Shown here: one piece after another, positions 604 through 27,981 of the stretch | How the letters are laid out: the number at the start of each line of letters is the position of its first letter | Numbering within the stretch: position 1 is the stretch's first letter | Virus record (IMG/VR): IMGVR_UViG_3300025614_000204 | Span: 1-28,946 of that record | DNA: 28,946 nucleotides | Direction: 5' to 3' (one strand) | From: a virus | Lineage: Duplodnaviria > Caudoviricetes | The notes under the pieces: model-generated | What the model was told of the DNA's origin: nothing | What the model saw: only the letters and a program-made list of their open reading frames with translations | The model's database searches: none | Program-made: the position numbers and the translations under genes

Positions 604-1632
604 TTATTGTCTATTTTCGATTATTTGATTCAATTCGTCAATTTCCACCTTATTTAACCTAGTTTCAATCAAACCAACCTCAAACACATCTTCACCCAAA
701 GACTCAAGTAATGATATAATTTTCTGGGCACTGTTACGTTCAACAACTAATACCATACCGATACCGTCATTAAATACTCGGTGCATTTCCTCATCTCTAA
801 TATTACCTGCTTTTTGTATCCAATTAAATTCTTCTTGTCGAAACGACTTATTGTTGTTATTCCATTTTGGTTTTAGGTTAATATCACCAAGCAGTCGGTT
901 GACGTTATATCGACCACCACCAGTAATATGAGAGATGCCGTGGACATCGTCTCTATAATATTCTAAAACCTTTAAGATACTATTTACATAAATCCTAGTC
1001 GGTTTAAGCAAATCGGCAAATAACCCCTTTGGGATAGATTCAGGGTCGTTTTCTAATGCGTGAGAAACAACCTGACGAATTAAAGTATAACCATTTGAGT
1101 GAAATCCGTTTGATTTTAAACCTAACATAACATCACCAACATCAATACCACTGCCGTCAATAAACCTGTCCTTAGGACAAGCTCCAACACCAAATCCAGC
1201 AACGTCAAACTCTCCTTCCTTATACATATCACCCATGATGGCAGTCTCTCCACCAATCAAAGGAATACCATCGCCACACTGTGCTAGACCCTCATTAATA
1301 CCATCAATCAGTCCCATTGCATCTATCGAATCAATCGTATTGACTGATAAATAATCGTTGAAGAATATGGGTTTAGCGCCCGTACAAACAAGGTCATTGA
1401 CCACCATAGCGACCAAGTCAATACCAAGGTTTTTAATATCAACACCTTCTTCCTTCTGTGCCTGAGTGTACATTTTTACCTTAGTCCCCACTCCATCAGT
1501 AGATGATACAAGGTAATCATCACCAATATCAAATGCTCCACCAAAACCACCTAACCAAGGCATTTTTTGCCCCAACTTAGCATTAAACATATCCTGTTCG
1601 TGTAAGTCTACACCACTGTCTTTATAATTCAT
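604..1632 (-). CDS. purM: Phosphoribosylformylglycinamidine cyclo-ligase (AIR synthetase)
   Basis: YKDSGVD, STDGVGTK, GIDLVAMVVND, GGETA, SNGFHSNGYTL, HITGGG, FNDGIGM motifs. Start moved to 1632 because it overlaps the upstream stop (ATGA). Confidence 0.95.
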   Translation of the reverse strand: MNYKDSGVDLHEQDMFNAKLGQKMPWLGGFGGAFDIGDDYLVSSTDGVGTKVKMYTQAQKEEGVDIKNLGIDLVAMVVNDLVCTGAKPIFFNDYLSVNTIDSIDAMGLIDGINEGLAQCGDGIPLIGGETAIMGDMYKEGEFDVAGFGVGACPKDRFIDGSGIDVGDVMLGLKSNGFHSNGYTLIRQVVSHALENDPESIPKGLFADLLKPTRIYVNSILKVLEYYRDDVHGISHITGGGRYNVNRLLGDINLKPKWNNNNKSFRQEEFNWIQKAGNIRDEEMHRVFNDGIGMVLVVERNSAQKIISLLESLGEDVFEVGLIETRLNKVEIDELNQIIENRQ

Positions 1633-1760
1633 TTGTTTGCCATCCCACAACCAATATATTCATTAGATGCTTTATCATACCCTCGTTTATATGCAATTTC
1701 TATCATTTGAGCAAGTGATTTGCCTTCACGTACTAATTTATATAATTCTTCGTTTGTCAT
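1629..1760 (-). CDS. Small hypothetical protein, 43 aa (not in ORF track)
   Basis: MTNEELYKLVREGKSLAQMIEIAYKRGYDKASNEYIGCGMANK; ATGA overlaps with both ligase stop and purM start. Confidence 0.65.
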   Translation of the reverse strand: MTNEELYKLVREGKSLAQMIEIAYKRGYDKASNEYIGCGMANK

Positions 1761-3100
1761 AATATATCTGCCTTTGATTTGTCTAATCTAGTTTCTATGT
1801 AAATAGGTAAGAATAATGACTTAGTTGATTTGCGTTTGTCTTGAATAACTTCGTTATATTTAACCGTTATAATCTTACCAACGATATCCTCAGCAACCAT
1901 CTCACGGTCTTCGTCATTGAATCCCGAACCTACGTTTACTTCAAGTCCACCGTCAGCACTAACGCAAGTAACAGAACCCATCTTACCTTCAATACGTCCC
2001 GTGCCTTCATTCCAAGCAGTTACTAATAAGTCTGCTTCAAGTTCTGCTTTCATCTTCACTTGATATTTAGAACGTTTATCTTCCCACGGTGAGTCACCAT
2101 TCTTAAGAATAATACCCTCTTCACCATTATCTAGTGCTTGTTTAAATAACTCATTTGCTTGTTCAATGTTATCAACAGGAATAGATGCAATTGGTCTAAT
2201 ATATTCAATAGGGTGACTATTTGAAACTTCTTCCATACGCACTTGAAGTACACCGATTCTATCAAAATACGGTATGTTACAAATACCTGTCTTAAAGTCT
2301 TCAATTGGGATTAAGTCCCACGCTACCATTCTAACACGTTTAGCGTCTTCCTTTGTAATAGTTCCCTTTACTGCTTTATTAAGAATCCCGTTGCCAGTCT
2401 TACGGTCAAGGATTGTTACCATATCTTCAGCAAGAACAACCAACTCACCATCAACGACCGAACCTCTAAAGGGATCTAACGACTCAAGTGTTGGTTTGGT
2501 ATAAAATATCTCTTTCATATAGTCGTCAAGTAAACCATGTAATTCAATTTGCTTACCGTTTCTGCTACGAATATCAACAGTTCCTTCTGGAGTAATAATG
2601 ATGTTGGAGCGCATACCGTCCATCTTTAATTGTACCATAGCAGGATATTTGATATGTTTGAAGTTCTTTTGATTGTAAGCACCGGCGAGCATACAAGGAT
2701 ATGTTGAAATTGTACCTTTACCATATACTTTATTTACAGTTGACGTAGATACACCACACCTCAAATCACCACCAATGACACGTTCAATAACCTCAGCATC
2801 ACCTGCTGTTAGGTTTTCAAGAATATCAACGAGGTGTTGTTTTGCGTTGTTACCCGTCAGTTCTCTCGAGGATAACTTATCAAGGTTGTCTAGTGCCCAA
2901 TCTAATGGGTTTCTAAACTCTTTATCACCACGGTCGTAGTCAGGAATCTTCCTAATATAGTATTGTGTGTATGGGTCTAAAGTTGCCTTTAGTACACGTT
3001 CAAGTAGTTTGTTATCAAGGTTTTGTTCTAATACATCTACCTTAAATAGACGACTATTATCACTCTCTAACTCATTTAATATCTCAATTACACTTTTCAT
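1757..3100 (-). CDS. 30: ATP-dependent DNA ligase (T4 gp30-like)
   Basis: Motif I KMDGMR, III VDGEL, IV EGIILK, KRS..KMK, OB-fold VGSGF, LFLPIY..RLDK. Confidence 0.95.
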   Translation of the reverse strand: MKSVIEILNELESDNSRLFKVDVLEQNLDNKLLERVLKATLDPYTQYYIRKIPDYDRGDKEFRNPLDWALDNLDKLSSRELTGNNAKQHLVDILENLTAGDAEVIERVIGGDLRCGVSTSTVNKVYGKGTISTYPCMLAGAYNQKNFKHIKYPAMVQLKMDGMRSNIIITPEGTVDIRSRNGKQIELHGLLDDYMKEIFYTKPTLESLDPFRGSVVDGELVVLAEDMVTILDRKTGNGILNKAVKGTITKEDAKRVRMVAWDLIPIEDFKTGICNIPYFDRIGVLQVRMEEVSNSHPIEYIRPIASIPVDNIEQANELFKQALDNGEEGIILKNGDSPWEDKRSKYQVKMKAELEADLLVTAWNEGTGRIEGKMGSVTCVSADGGLEVNVGSGFNDEDREMVAEDIVGKIITVKYNEVIQDKRKSTKSLFLPIYIETRLDKSKADIL

Positions 3101-3131
3101 ATCACTCTTTTTTCAATCATTTATAGTACCT

Positions 3132-3161
3132 ATTATACCCTAGTTTGTCCTAAAAGTAAAG
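3132..3161 (-). promoter_or_regulatory. Sigma70-type phage early promoter upstream of ligase
   Basis: CTTTACTTTTAGGACAAACTAGGGTATAAT. Confidence 0.85.
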
Positions 3162-3171
3162 CGATATTTGA

Positions 3172-7336: not shown

Positions 7337-7631
7337 TAATTAATCTACCTGAAGATGCAGTTGGAGTTTCAAATGAAGTCACAGAATCAATTCGGAACGA
7401 ACGGAATCCTTGTGCTTCTACATCAAAACAAGCAATTACTTCTTCGTTGACTTTCTTAGGGGCTTTAGTTGTTTTAGATTTGTCTGCTTCAGCAAACACG
7501 GGAAGTTCGGTAGACATCAACGTGCCTTTCATAACACGTTCAGTACCATCTTTCTTTGTAAAGGTGATTGTTGCGATATCGTTTCTTAACGCTTCAATAA
7601 CATTTTCTCTTACTACACTCAATTCACTCAT
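7329..7631 (-). CDS. Sm-like/SH3 beta-barrel protein (WYL_2/DUF2693-like)
   Basis: ITFTKKDGTERVMKGTL ... FDVEAQGFRSFRIDSV pattern; AAGGAG SD. Confidence 0.75.
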   Translation of the reverse strand: MSELSVVRENVIEALRNDIATITFTKKDGTERVMKGTLMSTELPVFAEADKSKTTKAPKKVNEEVIACFDVEAQGFRSFRIDSVTSFETPTASSGRLINA

Positions 7632-7664
7632 AATATAACTCCTTTTTTATTTAATATACTACGT

Positions 7665-7694
7665 ATTATACCCCACTTCAAAGGAAAAGTAAAG
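7665..7694 (-). promoter_or_regulatory. Sigma70-type phage early promoter upstream of topoisomerase operon
   Basis: CTTTACTTTTCCTTTGAAGTGGGGTATAAT. Confidence 0.85.
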
Positions 7695-7719
7695 CGATAT
7701 TATGACTTTATACCCCCTT

Positions 7720-8131: not shown

Positions 8132-8152
8132 AAATTCTCCTGTTAAGTTACT

Positions 8153-8182
8153 ATTATACTATAATATTGACCAAAAGTCAAG
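8153..8182 (-). promoter_or_regulatory. Sigma70-type phage early promoter
   Basis: CTTGACTTTTGGTCAATATTATAGTATAAT (TTGACT-N17-TATAAT). Confidence 0.85.
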
Positions 8183-8185
8183 TAA

Positions 8186-11100
8186 TTATTGAGTTTCATA
8201 CCCAGACCCAACTGGACCAAATTCAGACTCAATGCCATTAGACTTTTGTGTTACTTTGTAATAATAATCTATCGTTTCTTTTTGAGTATCATCAACAAAT
8301 GTCTGCGTAGATACATCAACACCGTAATGAGGGATAGTGTCAACATAATGATATTCTGGTGGATTTGCAGTATGTCCTGCTGTATCGGTCCTGTAAATAT
8401 TATACTCTTCTGCTGGGTTTTGGAATGCTGGATCCGGAACCCAAGTTCCATTTTGAGCAGGACATATTGTTTGGTCACCAAGTGTAGGATACACGTTCCA
8501 CGAATAACCATCAGAAGTAAAGGTATTTAAATTCCAAGTATGTTGTTGTTGCCAAGTGTTGTTGTCGTTTGTAAATTGATAAGGTGTCCACGTATGTTGC
8601 TGTGCCCACGAGTTTCCTTCGTTATCAAACGTGTATGTATTCCACGTAGAACCAGCATACCAAGTATTATTATCAGTCAAATAACTATTATTCCACCAAC
8701 TGTAGTTTGGTGCCCAAGTGTTGCCAGCACTCAAAAACGTATTTAGATTCCAACTATTGGCATATGTAAAGGTATTAGGGTTGTCCCATGTATATGTTCT
8801 TGCCCAAGTGTTGCCGTCGTTGGTCCACTGATTGCCTGACCAATTGTATCCATTATCCGTCCAAGTATGTGCCAACCAAGTATGTTGTTGACCCCAGTTA
8901 TTAGTCGGAGTCCAAGATGCTCCGTTTGGATACCAAGTATTGTCTGCAGTCCAAGTATTAGGTGTCCAAGTATTAGGTGTCCATGTGTTTGCAGTTCCCC
9001 AAGTTCGGTTTCCATTATCGACAGTAGAATTTTGAGGATAAATATATTCATTCGATTCCCAACCAGCACGATATGCGGGGTAGGGATTATACCATCCTGG
9101 GTAAATTTCAGGGTGGTTTATATTATTGTTTGCGAACCAAGTCTCCGCGGATGTTGGGTTACAAGAAGTCTGTGCAATATCAGTTACATACCATGCTGTG
9201 TATTTCCAATCGCTGGAACTTTCATGATCGACGTGTCCGTACTGACAACTAGGTATCCAGCCAGGTGGCTCCAAGTAATCTACCCTAACATAACAATTAC
9301 CTTTCGACAAACAAGTAGCAGAGGAATTGTCCCAAGCACTTTCATCGCTCGGTGGCATAGGACAGTTAATACCATTACCACTAACTATGATTTTGGAATT
9401 CACACAACTACCAGCAGACGTACAAGATGGGTCGGTAGTCCACGAAGAGTCTTGACAAAGTCCATTGCTGATGCCAGACGTACACGCAGAATAGTCGTGG
9501 TTTTTAGTAGTGTCAGTACAAGTTCCCCCGTCAATCGGATCTATACATACTAACTTATTGTTGTTATATGTAGCGTCTCCAACACAAGTTCCATCTACTT
9601 CACAAGCAAGCTGATTTTGAGAAGTAAAATCAGAACAATATGCTGTTGCTTCGCAATCAGTTTGATTGGTTTCTTGCGTATTAGTACACGCACCAGACAT
9701 ACCTAAACAGTCAGCAGAATTGTTGTATTGTGGGTCAGAACATCTATCAAGTTGGCAGGCGTTCAGTGTTGTGTAATTAGGATTTGAAGTTTCAGCAACG
9801 TCGTCGCACCAACCATTATCGGCATTAAAAAGGATACATGCACTTTCGTTACCAAAGGTTGGGTCGGAACAAAATCCAGATAAAGTACAAGCAGACGCGG
9901 TTGTATGAGTAGTAACAATTGTTCCACTACCAATAACACCGTCCCAACAATGACCAGTTCCAGTACAAACTGTTTGTAGATTATCATAAGCTGGGGTGTT
10001 TACTCCATCAACATTAAAACACAAACCAGCTAAATCCACACAAGATACTTCGTCCGTCCATGTAATATCACTACAAGAATAAGCATTTTCACAAGATGCT
10101 TGGGTATTATTAATTAAAGGAAAATCACTACAAATTCCATTTGCAATATTAACACAACCGGCTGGATCATTGTTGTATATTACTTCACTACAAGTTCCTT
10201 CATCAATACAAAGTTGTTTTGATTGTCCAGATAAATCACTACAATATCCATTTGCGTCTGATACACAAACGATTGGTTGATTATTATAAGAAGTATTTGA
10301 ACATATTCCTTCATCTTCGCAAGTCTGCTGTGTTGTTAAATTATAATTACTACAAACATTATCTTCACATAATGCTTCAGTATTAGGGTATGTGGCAGGA
10401 CCATCAGATAAGTTATCTTGTCTGTAAAAATTACCACCAACGTAAGTTTCAACATCACCAGGCGGTGTGAAATATAACTCTTCTCTCCAGTTGCCCCACC
10501 CCTGACCAAAGTACATAAGAATTGGGTAGTATGAATGAGCGTCAAGGGTTATTGTGTTTGATATTGACCGAGCTCCGTGTGGACCACTATTGTCAATAAG
10601 TTCATTAGTATTATTCCTTCTAGTGATCAAATCATCAATATCTTCGTCTTTATTTCCTACCCACAACCAAGTCGAATCATCGGAATTTATCCTAAATGTA
10701 TATACACCTGCATGTGTGGTTTTAAAATACCCTTGACGTTTACGAGCAAAGTATTGTTGAGAATTGTTACCGTTACTGTAAACTTGAGTATCTATCCAAG
10801 AACTAGTTAATGTTGCAGTATCAAACCAATTGAAGTTTCCGTCAAAATCTTGTCCCGCATTGCCACTGTACCCAGAATACTGCGTTGTATGCAACCCTAG
10901 TCCTGTTGTTAATTCACAATACCCATTTACAAGGTCAAGACAGTTATTAAATTGGTCTGTATATGTAGGGTTAGAACATGTTCCAGAAGTAATGCACTGT
11001 AAAGACGAGGGGTATGTTGGGTCACTACAAATAGCAGTTTCACAGAATGCTTTGCTTGAATTGTGAGTAGTGTCTAAACAATAACCATTAATATCAGCCT

Positions 11101-13153
11101 CACATTGATTTTGGTTGTTGTCATATGCAGGGATACTTATCTCCGGCAATACGTTCTTATCCCAGCATGAACCTGCTCCTTCACACGTTGCTTGGTCTGC
11201 ATAAGCAGTATCAGAACATCTAGCAATTTCACATGTAGATTCAGTAGTATATGTTGAAAAAGAACAAGTACCATCACTTTCACACGCAAATTGGTTGTTG
11301 TCGTAAGTAGTCCCAAGATTATTACACGTTCCTGCAGCACCACAAAGAGCCTGAGTTCCCCAAGTTTGATCAGAACACATAATAGACTCACACGCAAGTT
11401 CAAAAGTAAAGGTTGTGTCTGAACAATATCCACTAACAGGGTCTACACATAATGTTGGATTGTTGTTGTATGATGGATTGGAACAATCACCAGAATCTAC
11501 ACAATCCTCACCAACGTATATTGATATTAAAGAACCACCGATATCTTCACACTTATAACAATCACCAATTAAAGGGTTTACTGTTGGGTTTGATGTCCAA
11601 GATACCGTAATTTGTTTATACTGTCCAGAAGAAACCACCATATCTTCAACTAATTCCATATATTCATCACCAGACATAGAACCTTCTTCGCCAGGAAGTT
11701 CGACCTCCCAAGTAGCACCATGGTTTACGCAGATTTCAGGTGCGTAGTTTTCTATCCAATCACCAGTACCTCCGACTTGCCAAGTGTTAATTGATGGATC
11801 GTGCCAGAAGAAATACCATTGCGGATACCAGTTATACCCTTTGGTGCAGGCAGATTCGGTCCAACCGGCGTTCCCAGCAGTAAGGTTATACCAACTTCTA
11901 GGAGAAGTGAGGTTTGTAGTGCGTTCATAGTAACAAGCCGGTCCACTCATTCCATTACCAGAACAATTAATTTCGGTTTCAAATACAGAATGCCATGTAT
12001 TGGGGTCATTTTTCCTACGAACCATAAGTTCCAAACCAGTATCAGTATTTACACAAATAGAATGGTGCGGTGCTTCGCAAGATGCTTGATCGGTATCTTC
12101 GGAATACGGTTCGCACGTATATTCCTCACTACACCGAACGAACCCTGGAGACAAATCTCCAACACGAATAGCACCAGAACCAGTAACACTTAGAGCACCA
12201 ACCCAATAATAATGAGTGCCTATGTTAGATAACGTTACATCAGAGAACCAAATATCAGCAGTATTGCCGAGCAATTCTTGGTTCGATGTGAGGTTATCTT
12301 GGTCAAAGAAGTTAAATGCGTCTTTATCTATCGATCGATAAATGTTATATGAAACCGAACCAGCGACAGCAACCCAAGTTACTTGGACGAATCCTGGCAT
12401 TTGGTTATCACCGTCCGTAGCATTCAACGATGTTGGGGCGTCAACAGGATAGGATTGGACATTAACTCTAAATTCAGTATCAAAAAGAGTAAGTGTTAGA
12501 GGTTCTTCGTAAAATCTAAACCAAGATACCTCACACTTTTCTATTGAAACATTATTACTTGTTGCCCAATCATAACAAACACCATCAATTAATTCATAAC
12601 CAGCATTACATGGAATTGAATTATTGTCAATATCATATGTTTGGGGGTAAGAATCTAACGTTTTTCTATTTGTAGTAACAGGAATACTAACGGTTGCCTT
12701 TGGAACAGACCAACCTGTTGGTTGCAACCACGCATTGGTTCCGATCCAAATATTCTCTTCAGTCAGGCAATCGGTTTGGTTATCATTATAAGTCGGATCG
12801 GAACATTGTCCAATTGCAAGACAAACAAGTTCTTCTAAATAAGTTGGGTCTGAACAATGAGCAACTTCTTGTTCAATAAGATTAGTAGAAATAGTCAATT
12901 GCGAAACAGAAGCAAGTCCATCCGATGTGAAGAAACTACGAACTACTTCTAATACATTAGACGACCCCGCGTCTTTGAAGAATGGTTCTGCTACTGCCAA
13001 TTGGTTACATTTAAGGGTTGCCTCGGTTGCATTTTCAGAAGAGGTAATAATAGTGGTAACACGTAGGTTTCCACCATGCGTCGACATGCCCACATCTGCG
13101 ACATCGCCAGTCCATTCTTGTATTGGATTATAGTTAAATAGATTTTCACTCAT
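8186..13153 (-). CDS. Giant Cys/Trp-rich putative virion fibre/adhesin: two FN3-like domains, nested Cys-pair repeats, PA14 domain, Trp-rich return arm
   Basis: FN3 signatures (VTW..V..SYNIYRS..YYWV; ITVSW/YNIYR..YYYKV..ES); PA14 GYF..GVYTFRINSDD..LWVG..HG; about 30 CSDxxxxxxxxC modules; about 30 NT(W/F) motifs; no signal peptide. Confidence 0.8.
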   Translation of the reverse strand: MSENLFNYNPIQEWTGDVADVGMSTHGGNLRVTTIITSSENATEATLKCNQLAVAEPFFKDAGSSNVLEVVRSFFTSDGLASVSQLTISTNLIEQEVAHCSDPTYLEELVCLAIGQCSDPTYNDNQTDCLTEENIWIGTNAWLQPTGWSVPKATVSIPVTTNRKTLDSYPQTYDIDNNSIPCNAGYELIDGVCYDWATSNNVSIEKCEVSWFRFYEEPLTLTLFDTEFRVNVQSYPVDAPTSLNATDGDNQMPGFVQVTWVAVAGSVSYNIYRSIDKDAFNFFDQDNLTSNQELLGNTADIWFSDVTLSNIGTHYYWVGALSVTGSGAIRVGDLSPGFVRCSEEYTCEPYSEDTDQASCEAPHHSICVNTDTGLELMVRRKNDPNTWHSVFETEINCSGNGMSGPACYYERTTNLTSPRSWYNLTAGNAGWTESACTKGYNWYPQWYFFWHDPSINTWQVGGTGDWIENYAPEICVNHGATWEVELPGEEGSMSGDEYMELVEDMVVSSGQYKQITVSWTSNPTVNPLIGDCYKCEDIGGSLISIYVGEDCVDSGDCSNPSYNNNPTLCVDPVSGYCSDTTFTFELACESIMCSDQTWGTQALCGAAGTCNNLGTTYDNNQFACESDGTCSFSTYTTESTCEIARCSDTAYADQATCEGAGSCWDKNVLPEISIPAYDNNQNQCEADINGYCLDTTHNSSKAFCETAICSDPTYPSSLQCITSGTCSNPTYTDQFNNCLDLVNGYCELTTGLGLHTTQYSGYSGNAGQDFDGNFNWFDTATLTSSWIDTQVYSNGNNSQQYFARKRQGYFKTTHAGVYTFRINSDDSTWLWVGNKDEDIDDLITRRNNTNELIDNSGPHGARSISNTITLDAHSYYPILMYFGQGWGNWREELYFTPPGDVETYVGGNFYRQDNLSDGPATYPNTEALCEDNVCSNYNLTTQQTCEDEGICSNTSYNNQPIVCVSDANGYCSDLSGQSKQLCIDEGTCSEVIYNNDPAGCVNIANGICSDFPLINNTQASCENAYSCSDITWTDEVSCVDLAGLCFNVDGVNTPAYDNLQTVCTGTGHCWDGVIGSGTIVTTHTTASACTLSGFCSDPTFGNESACILFNADNGWCDDVAETSNPNYTTLNACQLDRCSDPQYNNSADCLGMSGACTNTQETNQTDCEATAYCSDFTSQNQLACEVDGTCVGDATYNNNKLVCIDPIDGGTCTDTTKNHDYSACTSGISNGLCQDSSWTTDPSCTSAGSCVNSKIIVSGNGINCPMPPSDESAWDNSSATCLSKGNCYVRVDYLEPPGWIPSCQYGHVDHESSSDWKYTAWYVTDIAQTSCNPTSAETWFANNNINHPEIYPGWYNPYPAYRAGWESNEYIYPQNSTVDNGNRTWGTANTWTPNTWTPNTWTADNTWYPNGASWTPTNNWGQQHTWLAHTWTDNGYNWSGNQWTNDGNTWARTYTWDNPNTFTYANSWNLNTFLSAGNTWAPNYSWWNNSYLTDNNTWYAGSTWNTYTFDNEGNSWAQQHTWTPYQFTNDNNTWQQQHTWNLNTFTSDGYSWNVYPTLGDQTICPAQNGTWVPDPAFQNPAEEYNIYRTDTAGHTANPPEYHYVDTIPHYGVDVSTQTFVDDTQKETIDYYYKVTQKSNGIESEFGPVGSGYETQ
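8498..9019 (-). repeat. Trp/Phe-rich 5-7 aa coding repeat array (xxNTW), including a perfect 15-bp tandem duplication at 8951-8980
   Basis: 29 motifs from DNGNRTW to TSDGYSW by hand count; CCAAGTATTAGGTGT x2. Confidence 0.9.
9160..11560 (-). repeat. Array of about 30 Cys-pair coding modules (C-S-D-x-x-(Y/W/F)-x4-6-C), interrupted by PA14 at about 10420-10903
   Basis: Read from translation, e.g. CSDTAYADQATC, CSDPTFGNESAC, CSDPQYNNSADC. Confidence 0.9.
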
Positions 13154-13161
13154 AGTGCTAC

Positions 13162-13169
13162 TATTTATT
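13162..13169 (-). promoter_or_regulatory. Probable T4-type late promoter (AATAAATA) 8 nt before the giant gene
   Basis: 7/8 match to TATAAATA, overlapping the upstream stop codon. Confidence 0.55.
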
Positions 13170-13919: not shown

Positions 13920-13927
13920 TATTTATA
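13920..13927 (-). promoter_or_regulatory. T4-type late promoter TATAAATA
   Basis: Exact intergenic match upstream of Zn-ribbon, RuvC-like and fibre genes. Confidence 0.7.
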
Positions 13928-13935
13928 ACCAAATA

Positions 13936-14319
13936 TTATCTACATCTATTAAAGTTTTTTATAGAACCAATATTTGATACATTTTTGTAACCAACCTCTT
14001 CTAATTTAGTCTTTGCCAATTGGGCAGTATATCCATCATTACAATACACCATAATAGGGATATTGTAAGAAATTCCTCTGCCTTGCATTTCCGTTTGGAT
14101 AAATTGACACGGTATATTTTGGGATAAATGTATTTTAGTTCCTTGGAAATCTACAGGCTGTCTTACATCAACAAGTAACCCTCCTGCATCAATTGTAAGT
14201 CTAACATCACCACAAGTCATCTCAGTAATAGAAGGCGTCTGCGGAGTTTCTTCAATATCCACAACATTTCTTAATTGACCTCTTACTTGGTCTCTAAAAC
14301 TTTCTCTCATACTTTTCAT
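13936..14319 (-). CDS. Single-domain rhodanese-like protein (PspE/GlpE-type)
   Basis: LLVDVR, NIP, IMVYCNDGYTA active-site loop, L...GYKNV.N. Start chosen just after upstream stop. Confidence 0.8.
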   Translation of the reverse strand: MKSMRESFRDQVRGQLRNVVDIEETPQTPSITEMTCGDVRLTIDAGGLLVDVRQPVDFQGTKIHLSQNIPCQFIQTEMQGRGISYNIPIMVYCNDGYTAQLAKTKLEEVGYKNVSNIGSIKNFNRCR

Positions 14320-14320
14320 A

Positions 14321-14539
14321 TTACATCCATCCTTTTCCATTCATCATTTCGTTTGCCTGTCTTACTGCAATATCTTTATCTGGTTCTTTAAACTTACTGC
14401 GAGAAACTGTAATATATCGTTTCCATTTCTTTTCACCACATTTACATGCGTCTAAGTCGATTGTCATATCTTCTGACCATGTACGCACAACTTCAATTAC
14501 TTCGTCGCACGATTCACATTTAAAATTATATATTGGCAT
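14321..14539 (-). CDS. FmdB-family zinc-ribbon protein
   Basis: MPIYNFKCESC ... CKCG. Confidence 0.8.
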   Translation of the reverse strand: MPIYNFKCESCDEVIEVVRTWSEDMTIDLDACKCGEKKWKRYITVSRSKFKEPDKDIAVRQANEMMNGKGWM

Positions 14540-17322: not shown

Positions 17323-19662
17323 CTATTTAGTGAACCAAATTTCAACAGAATCGTCTTTATAAGATGATGAGTCTGATTGCCATTTGGCGTAATATTGTGT
17401 TGCACCTTGCAACTTAATTTCTTTTTTAACTGCTGGAATAGTACCTTTACCTTTTGCACCAGCATATGTCTTCTTAGCAGTCTTTTGAAATGCTTTGATT
17501 TTATCCATTGCATCTCTAGTACCACGAGTACCGTCTCTTTCATCAACACCATCAATTAATAGTGCCATTGAATACTTCTCGTTTCTAACTGCACCAACAA
17601 AACCTTTTGCTTTTGCTTCAATCAATCCTCTTAATTCTTTGAATGATTTTCTTTCAACTGCTTCATTAATACCTTTCATGTCAGCAACGAATCCTTGAGA
17701 TTTAGCATATGCAATTACATCATCTGCTTTCTTAAATCCAATATGCATCCACTTGCCTTTTTTAACAATTTCAGCACCTTTAGGTAATTTGTTTCTTTCA
17801 TTATGCTTTTCAAATGCCATTATAAACATACCATCTTTCTTAGTACCAGTTATAATTTGCTTACCCTTATGTCTTAATGATAATGTAACACCAACAGTGG
17901 TTTTACCAACTACTTGTAAATCATATTGACCTTTTTTAGACAATGAAAATCCTTCATCAAGGTCAACAGATTCTTTAATTAAATCAGTTGATGTTAAAAT
18001 ATCAATTACTGTTTTCTTTGTTTTATCTAATTTAACATGAGCTTTTTGTCTTGCGGCAATACCACCAATCAATTTAGTTATTTTTCCCGTTTGCCCATGG
18101 TAACTAGATTTATCATCTACGAATTTTACTTTATCACCAACTTTAAAATCACGAATAGAACCTCTGTCGTATGCTTCGTCAAGTTCAACAGATTCAATTA
18201 AATTCTTTTTAAGGTATTTTACAGCATCAACACCACTCAATGGAGTAGTCATATTATTTTTGCTCGGAATAGTCCAAGTCAATGTAGTATTTTTATTAAC
18301 AGTTGCTGGGTTTACTTTACCACCTTTTGATTGACCATGGGCAACTGCTTTCTTTCCGTAGAAAATTGTGAAAGTTGAACCCTTTCCATTACGTTGCATC
18401 ATATATCCACTATCTTTGAAGATTTGTAGATTAGCACCTTCGTCAAGTTCAACTGATTCTTTAACAACTTTAAGTGTCTTATAAACTTTTTTGCCACGTA
18501 GGTCTGTTGCTTTAGTCAATTTCCAATGTTTATTATCAGCATCTTTTTGAGTTTTCAAAATACCTGACTTAAATTTCTCACCAGAAGTAGTAACACCAAC
18601 CACTCGAAAACCTTCTTCAATTTCAACTGACTCATTGGCTTTCTTTAATACATGAGCAATAATATCTTCATCAGCTAAACCTTTCTTAATCTTTTCGATT
18701 TGAGCATAAGCTTTATCATAGTTACCTGTAGATTTACGTGCAATACCAATAGCTTTTTTCATTTGAGCTTGGCTGAACACTTCATCAAGTTCAACTGATT
18801 CGTTAATTTTAGTCCAAGTGTCAAATTGAGATATAGGCATTAAAGATTGTTTCTTGCCTTTTTTCTTAACTGTAACTTTCTTGCCGCTGACAGCTATTAC
18901 CTTTAATGTTAATTTGTTCTTTTCAAATTCATCGCCAACTTTCACATCAGTATTGCCGTATCCTGCGGGTTTTGATTCTTCAACTGATTCCATACGACCT
19001 TTAACTTTGAATACTTTATATTCACCACCTACACGGTCAACTGCGTTACCACGTTTAGCATACTTATCTGCTTCTGCTTTAGATTTAAAGGTTTTAAACT
19101 TATCATCTACAGCATTCTTATTACCATTATAGTATTGTACACTGAAATAATCTTCTTCTAACTCAATTTCAACTGATTCACCCAAAGCATTCATTACATA
19201 ATCGGCAACATTGTCAAGTTCTTCTTTACCTAAACCTTCACGTGATAATACTTTCAATACATCTTTATATGATTTAGCATTTTTCTTCTTAGCAAGTGTT
19301 ACATACTTACCGTATCCGCCCCTTTTACCAAAACCAATACCTTTAGCATTTTTCATTGAAACTGCTTCTTCAAGGTCAACCGATTCAGTTGTGCTTCCAG
19401 GAAAGTATTTATTGCCTTTACCACGTTTCTTCTCATCAATAATATTAGCGGCAAGGAATGAAATATGGTCAATCTTAGCATCTCTGATTTGTTTAAGAAC
19501 ATTGTCAGGTAATTTTCTGAATGATTTAACTACTGCTTGGAATTCTTTGCTACTTGTATCAATTTTCTTTTTACCAGAATATTCTTTACGCAACTTATCC
19601 AATTGCGATTTTGAGAAACTTGCTTCGTTAATTTGTGCTTTTAATTCTTTAAATGTTTTCAT
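17323..19662 (-). CDS. Putative internal-head polyprotein: about 10 Lys-rich modules separated by ESV(E/D)L(D/E)E linkers
   Basis: N-terminal MKTFKELKAQINE tag; eight ESVxxxE linkers; unrelated basic modules between them. Confidence 0.75.
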   Translation of the reverse strand: MKTFKELKAQINEASFSKSQLDKLRKEYSGKKKIDTSSKEFQAVVKSFRKLPDNVLKQIRDAKIDHISFLAANIIDEKKRGKGNKYFPGSTTESVDLEEAVSMKNAKGIGFGKRGGYGKYVTLAKKKNAKSYKDVLKVLSREGLGKEELDNVADYVMNALGESVEIELEEDYFSVQYYNGNKNAVDDKFKTFKSKAEADKYAKRGNAVDRVGGEYKVFKVKGRMESVEESKPAGYGNTDVKVGDEFEKNKLTLKVIAVSGKKVTVKKKGKKQSLMPISQFDTWTKINESVELDEVFSQAQMKKAIGIARKSTGNYDKAYAQIEKIKKGLADEDIIAHVLKKANESVEIEEGFRVVGVTTSGEKFKSGILKTQKDADNKHWKLTKATDLRGKKVYKTLKVVKESVELDEGANLQIFKDSGYMMQRNGKGSTFTIFYGKKAVAHGQSKGGKVNPATVNKNTTLTWTIPSKNNMTTPLSGVDAVKYLKKNLIESVELDEAYDRGSIRDFKVGDKVKFVDDKSSYHGQTGKITKLIGGIAARQKAHVKLDKTKKTVIDILTSTDLIKESVDLDEGFSLSKKGQYDLQVVGKTTVGVTLSLRHKGKQIITGTKKDGMFIMAFEKHNERNKLPKGAEIVKKGKWMHIGFKKADDVIAYAKSQGFVADMKGINEAVERKSFKELRGLIEAKAKGFVGAVRNEKYSMALLIDGVDERDGTRGTRDAMDKIKAFQKTAKKTYAGAKGKGTIPAVKKEIKLQGATQYYAKWQSDSSSYKDDSVEIWFTK
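17953..19386 (-). repeat. Eight dispersed ~21-bp in-frame repeats, consensus GAATC(A/T)GTTGA(A/C)CTTGA(C/T)GAA
   Basis: Copies at about 17953, 18175, 18439, 18613, 18781, 18973, 19155, 19366. Confidence 0.85.
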
Positions 19663-26445: not shown

Positions 26446-27469
26446 TTTCTATTAAAGAAGTTCTTCCGATAGCATATTTGTTAGTCATAAATGTTTTGAA
26501 TTCGTCATTGTTGATAATACTTTCCCAAAACTCTTTAGTGTGGGTATCTTTTTCTCGTACTTTCTTTTCGGAGACTTCACCTGTGGTAGTATCAATTTTA
26601 GAATACCATCCTAAACTAGGTTTAACAACGTGACCAGATTCAATCGCAACATCTAGTAGACCAGAATATTTCTTAATTCCACCTTCCCATGTTACTGATA
26701 CTGGAATCTTTGATTTTTCTTTTGTGAATCTAGATTTTTCAATATTGACAATAAAGTCGTATCCTTCAATTTCAGTACCTTTCTTATTCTGACGACGACC
26801 AATAACCCATACGTTGTCAGCAGAATACATCACACCAGTACCACCAGATACAACTGATTTAGAAAACATTTCTTGAGTTTGGTATGTGTGATTGATAGCA
26901 ATTAGAGGAATATCTTTAAGAGTCAAATATGGTGTAACCATTCTGAATAAAGATTTAAGTTGTTTAGCACGTGTCATATCAGCAACAGATTTGCCGTCTT
27001 TAGCGTCATCCATCTCTTTCTTAGACGCAAGATTACCAATAGAATCAATCATAATATAAACGTTATCTTTTACGTCCATATCTTCAAGTTGATTTACGAT
27101 GTCGAATTTAAGTTCTTCAATGTTTTTAATAGGAACGTGTAACACTCTATCAGTATCAATATCAAACGATTCAAAATATGATTGTGGTGTACCAAATTCT
27201 GAGTCATAAAACAATGCGATTGCTTCGGGATACTTGTCAAGGTATGCCTTCATCATTAATAAACCAAATGCAGTTTTAAAGTGTTTTGATGGACCTGCGA
27301 GAACAGTTAGTCCAGATGTGATACCACCATCCATTCTACCAGATAATGCAACGTTCACCATTGGAACGGAAGTCGGAATAACATCCTTTGCGTTGAATAA
27401 CGCAGACTTAGAAAGTTGCGTCGATTTGATTGTGCCTGATTTCTTCAGACGTGCCATTAAGTCACTCAT
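26432..27469 (-). CDS. uvsX: RecA-like recombinase UvsX
   Basis: GPSKHFKT, YDSEFG, DSIGNLASKKE, DMTRAK, SGGTG, EKSRF. Confidence 0.96.
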   Translation of the reverse strand: MSDLMARLKKSGTIKSTQLSKSALFNAKDVIPTSVPMVNVALSGRMDGGITSGLTVLAGPSKHFKTAFGLLMMKAYLDKYPEAIALFYDSEFGTPQSYFESFDIDTDRVLHVPIKNIEELKFDIVNQLEDMDVKDNVYIMIDSIGNLASKKEMDDAKDGKSVADMTRAKQLKSLFRMVTPYLTLKDIPLIAINHTYQTQEMFSKSVVSGGTGVMYSADNVWVIGRRQNKKGTEIEGYDFIVNIEKSRFTKEKSKIPVSVTWEGGIKKYSGLLDVAIESGHVVKPSLGWYSKIDTTTGEVSEKKVREKDTHTKEFWESIINNDEFKTFMTNKYAIGRTSLIESDDE

Positions 27470-27501
27470 AATATAATTCCTTTTTTATTCAATATACCTC
27501 T

Positions 27502-27531
27502 ATTATACCCTACAAACGGGCAAAAGTAAAG
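27502..27531 (-). promoter_or_regulatory. Sigma70-type phage early promoter upstream of uvsX
   Basis: CTTTACTTTTGCCCGTTTGTAGGGTATAAT. Confidence 0.85.
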
Positions 27532-27534
27532 TAT

Positions 27535-27981
27535 TTATCTACGAACAGGATTGTCGCGTAATTCTTGTAGATTGGAAGGTTTTCTTAAATTTGCCCAGCG
27601 GGTTAAATAAATAACAGGAAACTTAGGAAACAATTTCAAAAAATCTTTAGTATCAAATTGAAGGTCTGAAGCAATCTCTTTGTGATCAGAAGGGACAGAA
27701 GACAATCCATAAAATGCTCTAGACTCAATCAGAGCATTAATTCTATCTGATGTTGGTTGTATTCCGTTCAAAATCATAACTTCTGCTGCTATCTTTTCGT
27801 TCCAGATATCTCCAACAATGTAGCCATCAACATCAAGTTCGTATTCTCTGTCACTTTGAATATCTTCATACTTTTGACGGGCTGTCAGGTTCTTAATATT
27901 ATCTTGGAAGTTACCAACAAAAGAATTAAAATCATTTCCTTTACTTTCTTCTGCTACTGTATCTACATTAATCTTTGCCAT
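27535..27981 (-). CDS. dsrC: DsrC/TusE-like protein lacking cysteines, with N-terminal extension
   Basis: ELDVDGYI...WNEKIA...GI.....R.FY...LFP..P......ANLRKP aligns by eye with DsrC/TusE (LDxEGYL..WxxxVA..R.YY..LFPxGPAKQACxxAGLPKPTGCV). Confidence 0.7.
   Translation of the reverse strand: MAKINVDTVAEESKGNDFNSFVGNFQDNIKNLTARQKYEDIQSDREYELDVDGYIVGDIWNEKIAAEVMILNGIQPTSDRINALIESRAFYGLSSVPSDHKEIASDLQFDTKDFLKLFPKFPVIYLTRWANLRKPSNLQELRDNPVRR

Follow-up and report, generated by a model that had tools for sequence, protein, structure and literature searches.

Introduction

The described systems closest to the protein analysed here share an out-and-back plan. In the antigen I/II adhesins SspB, AspA and SpaP, as presented in PMC3178794, an Ala-rich helix and a polyproline helix form the stalk and the variable region lies at the apex. 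In the gp37 needle of T4, domain D11 is inserted in D10, and the chain runs to the tip and turns back (PMC9603124), while the ultralong CDR H3 of cow antibodies forms a stalk and a knob (PMC5994613). Here, we analyse the P0001 gene in a 28,946-nucleotide stretch of DNA (the whole of which we call the window; IMG/VR record IMGVR_UViG_3300025614_000204) from a T4-like, marine phage. An earlier note, made from the letters of the window, had described about 30 Cys half-repeats in this gene, mirrored in reverse order by about 30 Trp half-repeats, and had proposed a long hairpin fibre. We conclude, with a probability of roughly 0.7, that P0001 is a virion-associated adhesin in which a unit of two Cys and one Trp has been inserted in itself 30 times, giving an out-and-back stalk. 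The pattern is real and recurs across three protein families, and the hairpin topology is independently supported by a fibronectin-like domain (FN3) that appears split by the stalk in a structure model.

As far as the antigen I/II stalk is described in the source cited above, P0001 would share with it a single chain that goes out and back, two unlike repeat regions that pair, and a projected variable domain; for P0001, the split FN3 of the model and the matched counts of the two arms point to this plan with a variable apex. The antigen I/II proteins, however, are cell-wall proteins that combine an alpha helix with a polyproline helix and contain no Cys/Trp unit, whereas the arms of P0001 consist of Cys-pair modules and Trp/Asn/Thr motifs and gave no Pfam match to an Ala-rich/Pro-rich stalk. 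Stalks of the P0001 type have halves that are also found joined in one intact unit, that form branching nests of 3 to 30 levels, and that pass from gene to gene. The gp37 needle is, in the published outline, likewise a phage receptor-binding extension inserted within another domain with a returning chain, but it is an interwoven trimer of 20 nm and fixed length, with neither Cys-pair modules nor split repeats. Its D10-D11 pair was not among our sequence or fold matches, in which the stalk model is of low confidence and FN3 fills the lists. The bovine CDR H3 resembles P0001 in that a stalk in a loop of an Ig-like domain carries a variable knob, yet in the account cited it measures at most ~70 residues and is not built from repeats, whereas P0001 devotes 1,040 residues to modular, register-matched halves. 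FN3/Ig-like and PA14/GLEYA domains are accessory virion domains of phages, and P0001 has PA14/GLEYA and, going by the model of a homolog, the FN3 fold; there, however, the FN3 is split by the stalk and PA14 is nested inside a Cys loop. None of the compared systems, as described in these sources, has a unit that is both whole and split and that nests, branches and moves, and our survey of the open-access literature found no nested, mirror-order or recursive split-repeat Cys/Trp stalk.

Results

A repeat unit that occurs whole and split

The repeat unit, C-x10-12-C-x4-7-W, is found both as intact tandem copies and in split form. Each of the intact tandem units in the N-terminal part of the homologs P0012 and P0013 holds two Cys and a single Trp, which suggests that a single Trp would also cap the Cys pair of each module in the split form. 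In P0001, 62 Cys lie within residues 533-1335. Apart from C1264 and C1303, an extra pair in enlarged tip loops, they make up 30 pairs (60 Cys) from C535 (nucleotide 11551) to C1331 (nucleotides 9161-9163), the number of outward modules that had been counted by hand in the earlier note. A fixed rule that steps back 5-7 residues to W, F or Y, with W preferred, yields 29 aromatic anchors in the Cys-free arm, from W1552 (nucleotide 8500) back to W1385 (nucleotide 9001), in agreement with the 29 return motifs plus a tip that had been proposed. The tip contains three more Trp (1339, 1354 and 1365), and the place of W1339 after the last Cys is that of the Trp in an intact unit. The outer closing pair was also found as claimed: C532 (nucleotide 11560) and C1564 with W1571 enclose the whole stack, and the insertion would form a loop of ~1,040 residues. 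The stack lies within the interval 8186..11640 that the note had given, but the gene starts 1.5 kb upstream of it and also contains a PA14/GLEYA domain in module 12 and two N-terminal nests (Table 1).

Repeats at the DNA level are few and weak. Tandem Repeats Finder made a single detection, a 15-bp unit at 8949-8983, and DNA self-comparison gave two weak repeats; this indicates that the modules are old and do not now change by slippage on perfect repeats. A search of the ESM Atlas with residues 930-1575 gave no usable match.

Module and motif counts move together in homologs

Homolog searches revealed three protein families with such stacks, in which Cys/2 was compared with the number of chained anchors. 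In family 1, to which the P0001 gene belongs, ten complete stalks counted by one rule gave 31/29, 31/29, 15/15, 6/6, 6/7, 7/7, 6/7, 7/7, 3/3 and 7/3; the count excludes L009, whose frame is broken, and the partial proteins P0005, P0006, P0007, P0009 and P0014. Family 2 (P0004, P0019-P0022 and P0024) comprises proteins of 1.9-2.6 thousand residues that have the family 1 N-terminal domain, several branched stacks and a C-terminal PA14. A bracket reading of their main stack region gave 23/22, 13/13, 29/21, 14/14, 27/28 and 15/14 openings and closings, and side nests close back to depth 2-4 before the next one opens. Family 2 had no match in the viral contig set, and no genomic context was found for it. 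Family 3 consists of otherwise unrelated baseplate wedge proteins (phrog_17744, E 1e-42) with counts of 13/13, 9/9 and 11/13. In these proteins of 2.7-2.9 thousand residues (P0023, P0025, P0026 and loci L011-L037), the nested stack is optional: the insertion site could be located in 13 of 27 loci, 12 of which are without both halves, the remaining one having a 9/9 stack.

The earlier note had suggested checking whether Cys-module and Trp-motif counts agree in homologs, and they do co-vary. Over 19 stacks, which range from 3 to ~30 modules, the correlation is r=0.97, with 14/19 pairs of counts agreeing within one and 17/19 within two. The two outliers (7/3 and 29/21) arise where the rule is broken at a longer spacer and become 7/7 and 29/29 when read by hand; the other offsets reflect extra Cys or aromatics at tips.

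The flanks of the stalk form one FN3 domain in a model

The sequence before C532 and after W1571 reads as two halves of one FN3. The AlphaFold2 model of the equivalent 311 residues in the 6-module allele L008 (~44% identical to P0001; 14 alignment rows) has a mean pLDDT of 57.8, with values of ~78-86 in both flanks and 60-80 in the tip. VIA-align matched this model to whole FN3 domains at Z 11-12 and rmsd 2.1-3.2 A, with 92-104 residues aligned (for example, Z 12.0, rmsd 3.2, 104 aligned; Z 11.7, rmsd 2.5, 99/99 aligned). The match spans model residue 11-14 to 309-311, and the 87 C-terminal residues alone are insufficient for it. In this model, both flanks of the L008 insertion are one FN3 fold, and because they are, the chain must leave and re-enter one domain, unless chains swap. 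Five of the six second Cys of the model lie in short helices, and strands are placed at G-x-C linkers (120-122 and 138-143) and at return motifs (171-176 and 179-181), as mirror pairing needs, their partners not being reported. The step from recursive nesting to an out-and-back stalk, as taken in the earlier note, thus gains from the homolog counts and from the single FN3 made by both flanks, but the contacts of the stalk itself were not obtained from models.

Other searches were less informative. Fold searches were filled by FN3 and silent on the stalk fold, and a two-chain prediction of the outer Cys arm with the outer Trp arm scored 0.05, which speaks neither for nor against pairing. Pfam fn3 (PF00041) had no match in P0001 or 10 homologs. 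A profile of the C-terminal FN3 half reached an Fn3-like chain only at E=0.78, and it had no copy in three of five viral records, all of them incomplete. Among the 50,697 phage records of GenBank we found no stalk relative, the sole match being to PA14.

Mirror register within P0001 and related alleles

Register tests in P0001 covered modules 1-28, with classes chosen after the data were seen. Linkers of at least 7 residues face 5-mers (7/8 versus 2/20 of the others; Fisher p=2e-4), and this association has a phi of 0.75 at mirror shift 0, compared with 0.58 for the best other of 33 registers, which bears out the matching mirror registers that had been claimed. So do the 4-residue linkers, all five of which stand opposite 6-mers (p=0.005). 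The six motifs ending in F or Y had been placed opposite Y(N/D)N-type loops; a first Y-N-N loop regex gave zero matches, and under a broader aromatic/Leu-[DN]-[DN] class all six are opposite modules of that class (6/9 versus 0/19 others, p=2e-4). A Mantel test over the whole array gave r=0.21 (17/10000 permutations), yet a shift of -2 gives 0.22. Taken alone, P0001 is suggestive, and the homologs carry the case. In five other, related alleles, the 4-residue linker again coincides with the 6-mer (5/5 versus 1/27) and the loop class with the 5-mer (8/9 versus 6/23).

A likely virion protein

We read P0001 as a virion antenna because of its FN3 domains, the stacks in baseplate wedge proteins and the tail-protein match of its PA14 domain. 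The viral fold matches of the FN3 model are tail-tip and virion proteins, all with E above 0.001. The PA14/GLEYA domain is predicted from its sequence to be carbohydrate-binding (PF10528: E=2e-10, 41.1 bits versus a cut-off of 26.2; PF07691: E=5e-8, 33.3 versus 24), and among phage proteins it best matches a putative tail protein of Pelagibacter phage HTVC112P (28%). Its position changes from module 12 in P0001 to module 11, 3 or 2 in other alleles, some alleles are without it, and P0026 and P0021 have a 90-residue domain inside a Cys loop. The conserved N-terminal domain of P0001, which is 45% identical in P0016 over residues 1-77 and had no Pfam or PHROG match, is likely the anchor to the virion.

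Points against the stalk and alternative explanations

Several observations weigh against a virion-borne, self-nested stalk. Phage assembly takes place in the cytoplasm, which is reducing, and the disulfides must nonetheless form. The P0001 gene sits among replication genes, outside any structural cluster; the protein has no PHROG match, and the 50,697 phage records searched contain no isolate or virion proteome for it. AlphaFold2 applied to residues 500-1655 with 2 sequences was unusable (mean pLDDT 25.9), and in the L008 model the outer return arm and modules 1-3 have pLDDT values under 50. Much of the register signal is carried by a period-3 pattern in modules 1-14; in the inner, non-periodic part (modules 15-28), the linker test is weak (p=0.04), and neither mutual information (p=0.11) nor the Mantel test (1418/10000 permutations, p 0.14) is significant. 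The long-linker rule is not significant in the five other alleles (2/2 versus 12/30, p=0.18), and the 19 stacks are related, so that p-values overstate their independence.

Equal counts and a mirror register would be equally expected if pairing occurred between chains, in a domain-swapped dimer or trimer fibre where each subunit's Trp arm pairs with a neighbour's Cys arm. Many phage fibres are trimeric, and the gp37 needle chain, as described, twists round its neighbour before turning back (PMC9603124). We nevertheless consider this arrangement unlikely: a single chain accounts more simply for lone intact units and for branching with side nests at depth 2-4, and the model, in which only a monomer was considered, closes the FN3 in cis. 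A stalk of the proposed shape might also exist with its Cys bound to Zn or Fe, or with each second Cys pairing with the next first Cys across the linker. The reducing cytoplasm and the C-x4-9-C linkers, which put the Cys of adjoining modules close, would suit such chemistry. However, the intact tandem units of P0013 and the N-terminal part of P0012 have exactly two Cys and one Trp, the modules show no recurring His or extra ligand pattern, and linker pairing would leave the ends unpaired in every stack, since each opens with a first Cys and closes with a second; this makes metal or linker pairing quite improbable.

There is a small chance that the stalk is real and the protein non-virion, with a role inside the infected cell or at its surface, such as excluding superinfection or serving as a decoy after release. 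The position of the gene among replication and auxiliary genes would fit, as would its presence in contigs from metatranscriptome runs, which is no proof of transcription. Against such a role stand the same stack in baseplate wedge proteins, the FN3 and PA14 matches that point to phage tail or virion proteins, and the lack of any signal peptide or membrane segment by eye. Upstream of the neighbouring RuvC-like gene there is also a late-promoter-like TATAAATA (13920-13927, minus strand), which we take to be the T4 late consensus, although its three matches in the window, all intergenic and on the coding strand, equal the number expected by chance. Finally, the two arrays could be independent of each other, self-contained Cys modules being followed by a separately folding Trp/Asn/Thr-rich strand or solenoid, and their equal number an inherited coincidence. 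The contacts indeed appear in no structure, period-3 patterns can fit several registers and the inner-half statistics are weak. This explanation is strongly disfavoured. In three families, the two counts rise and fall together over a tenfold range; this extends to the partial closures of branched stacks, and wedge proteins that have no stack have neither half. A single-chain, self-nested stalk on the virion is the reading we retain.

Alleles and length change

The locus of P0001, between the RuvC-like gene and an 83-aa gene, is hypervariable. L002, whose flanks are 95-98% identical to the window, has a 944-aa, 6-module allele at this locus, and inside the gene only short DNA patches are alike. 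Runs X13, X14 and X16 contain contigs of the two alleles, and the joints of the short one are found in X11 and X12 as well; a divergent contig end lies at 9051, within the tip, in runs X8 and X11. P0002 differs from P0001 only at residues 1254-1269, where it resembles P0003. In P0010, the tip is homologous to those of P0005 (45%, E 4e-39) and P0001 (26%) and PA14 is kept, with one module and one motif between them versus 16 and 16 in P0001. The tip of P0016 has a 4/4 sub-stack that P0011 is without, a difference of a single tract, and a block of 142 residues (five modules and their motifs) is common to the wedge protein P0026 and the family 2 protein P0020 at 70% identity.

These comparisons modify the claim that length changes need coordinated edits in two distant DNA tracts. 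Two-tract differences do exist (P0010 versus P0001), but balanced blocks also come and go as single tracts, as in P0016 and P0011, in P0026 and P0020, and in wedge proteins with or without the stack. Differences of either kind would follow from a single cassette exchange whose two junctions match in depth.

Features of the gene and its surroundings

An assembly artefact can be ruled out as the origin of P0001. The open reading frame (ORF) was found unchanged in a 129-kb contig (L010), a 13.8-kb contig of run X1 covers the gene with zero differences (it may have the same source), and a homolog 76% identical to P0001 shares its module and motif counts. Among the 20 matches listed, the runs with the gene come from 17 studies of marine or seawater metagenomes, and eight of the 20 are marked as a possible source. 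One long-stalk homolog (L009:980-1354) shifts frame twice around the PA14 region, which reflects either an assembly error or a broken allele. As for the smaller parts of P0001, nest 2 has equal depth in P0013 by eye, and the first, uninterrupted FN3-like domain has two weak leads from homologs: ESM Atlas FN3 clusters at 0.84-0.85 (P0008 1-245) and phrog_7440 at E=5e-4 (P0011 150-215). The wedge proteins also have a glucose/sorbosone dehydrogenase-like domain that houses a second small nest, and a long stretch rich in H-x-H motifs.

Table 1 Parts of the P0001 gene in window coordinates, ordered from the N-terminus.
Feature	Position (nt)	Strand	Basis
Whole gene (P0001)	8186..13153	-	ORF of 1655 aa
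Conserved N-terminal domain, aa 1-95	12869..13153	-	Alignment; common to all full-length family members and family 2
Small nest 1, aa 100-148: two Cys-pair modules, then W136, W142, W148	12710..12856	-	Sequence
First, uninterrupted FN3-like domain, aa ~236-338	12140..12448	-	Sequence pattern by eye; weak leads
Nest 2, aa 341-482: outer pair C341..C475-W482 around three Cys-pair modules and Trp-rich return	11708..12133	-	Hand reading
N-terminal strands of second FN3, aa 499-528 (predicted)	11570..11659	-	Model of homolog L008, pLDDT ~78 there
C532, opening half of outermost split unit	11558..11560	-	Partner C1564 and W1571 invariant in homolog alignment
Outgoing arm: 30 Cys-pair modules, aa 535-1331, loops mostly 10-12 aa, linkers 4-9 aa	9161..11551	-	Pair count
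PA14/GLEYA domain inside loop of module 12 (C746..C929)	10370..10915	-	PF10528, PF07691
Tip, aa 1250-1384: modules 29-30 with enlarged loops, C1264/C1303, W1339, turn; most variable part	9002..9406	-	
Return arm: 29 aromatic anchors 5-7 aa apart, Cys-free, aa 1385-1552	8498..9001	-	
Closing half of outermost unit: C1564, W1571	8441..8497	-	Sequence, homolog alignment
C-terminal strands of second FN3, aa 1572-1655 (predicted)	8189..8440	-	Alignment; pLDDT ~80 in homolog model

All long ORFs of the window are on the minus strand, and they also code for a DnaB-like helicase, a UvsX-like recombinase, a primase, an exonuclease, a RuvC-like resolvase and purM. An ATAAATA at 13162-13168 (minus strand) ends 9 bases before the P0001 start codon. 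Four intergenic stretches of 35-90 bases (3083-3168, 7618-7708, 8152-8187 and 27459-27536) are alike to each other's L002 counterparts at 75-84% identity; one lies directly behind the P0001 gene, and they may be promoter or recombination cassettes at module borders. The rhodanese-like gene at 13936-14340 (minus strand) is also swapped, with another allele in L002 and contigs of runs X11 and X12 that skip 13929-14321. A porin-like or outer-membrane-like ORF with a signal-peptide-like start and the adjoining purM lie at 2-439 and 604-1650 (minus strand), and both are kept in L001, L002 and L003.

Between 17323 and 24829 (minus strand), seven ORFs have similar N-termini (MKTFKEL, MKTFKQHL, MNTFRQHL, MKTFIQHI, MMKSFELY, MKPFTFKDF and MKSFKSYI), followed by Glu, which in our view presumably resemble the capsid-targeting leader of T4 internal proteins. 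One of them (17323-19662, minus strand; 779 aa) is a chain of short blocks with ESVELDE-like motifs between them, possibly prohead-protease sites, and had no Pfam or PHROG match above the cut-off. A DsrC-like gene at 27535-27981 (minus strand; Pfam E=2e-5, just over the cut-off) had no DsrC-like match among GenBank phages. Its DsrC/TusE-like product contains no cysteine and is without the catalytic C-terminal Cys motif outlined in 10.1101/053090. In that report, as far as it describes them, ocean contigs bearing dsrC or soxYZ belong to the T4 superfamily, with hosts that are probably sulfur-oxidising proteobacteria. The DsrC-like gene of the window would fit this contig type.

Discussion

In the architecture we propose for P0001, the chain would exit the FN3 domain as a string of loops, each likely closed by a disulfide, reverse direction at the variable tip and come back in extended form, likely with an aromatic residue placed on every loop. 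Each Trp would pack on the Cys pair of its own module. Within a nest, the G-x-C of the next module would take the place of G-T-W, with the Trp supplied on the way back, and the G-x-C linker would pair with the T-W motif as a beta strand. The earlier note had spoken of disulfide-stapled arms. Cys pairing is probable, but the pairs would close loops within modules, and since only C532-C1564 would bridge the arms, these would be held together mainly by Trp packing and strand pairing. The result would be a thin stalk of up to ~55 nm (the 167 residues of the return arm, at 0.33 nm per residue, allow at most this length if fully extended). PA14, a lectin-like domain, would sit about halfway up, and the hypervariable tip would make the first, reversible contact with glycans on the host surface.

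The unit would tolerate insertions at two points, one within the Cys loop and the other after the second Cys, ahead of the Trp. The whole stalk within C532..C1564, PA14 within C746..C929 and the 90-residue domain of P0026 and P0021 are insertions in Cys loops. Recombination with junctions at equal depth could then add, delete or exchange any balanced block in a single DNA tract, and selection would eliminate products that are out of balance. The UvsX-like recombinase encoded by the phage could serve such cassette movement.

On balance, we incline to regard this as a new class of protein architecture: a self-nesting repeat with a balanced-bracket grammar like that of an RNA stem, with halves up to 1,000 residues apart, 30 levels, branching, lectin domains in loops and cassettes that pass between virion proteins, yielding for marine phages single-chain antennae of tunable length and shape. 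Known repeat proteins consist of units in succession, or of two unlike pairing regions; here, one small unit is found both whole and split, and its nested, branched split form would place folding information in long-range mirror pairing. If the stalk is confirmed, it would be a new way to build a long single-chain rod and a case that AlphaFold2 failed to model here. Its natural series of 3, 6, 7, 14 and 30 levels would show how a chain finds partners hundreds of residues away, and it would provide a readable rule by which phages change the reach and the tip of a host-contact protein through cassette exchange.

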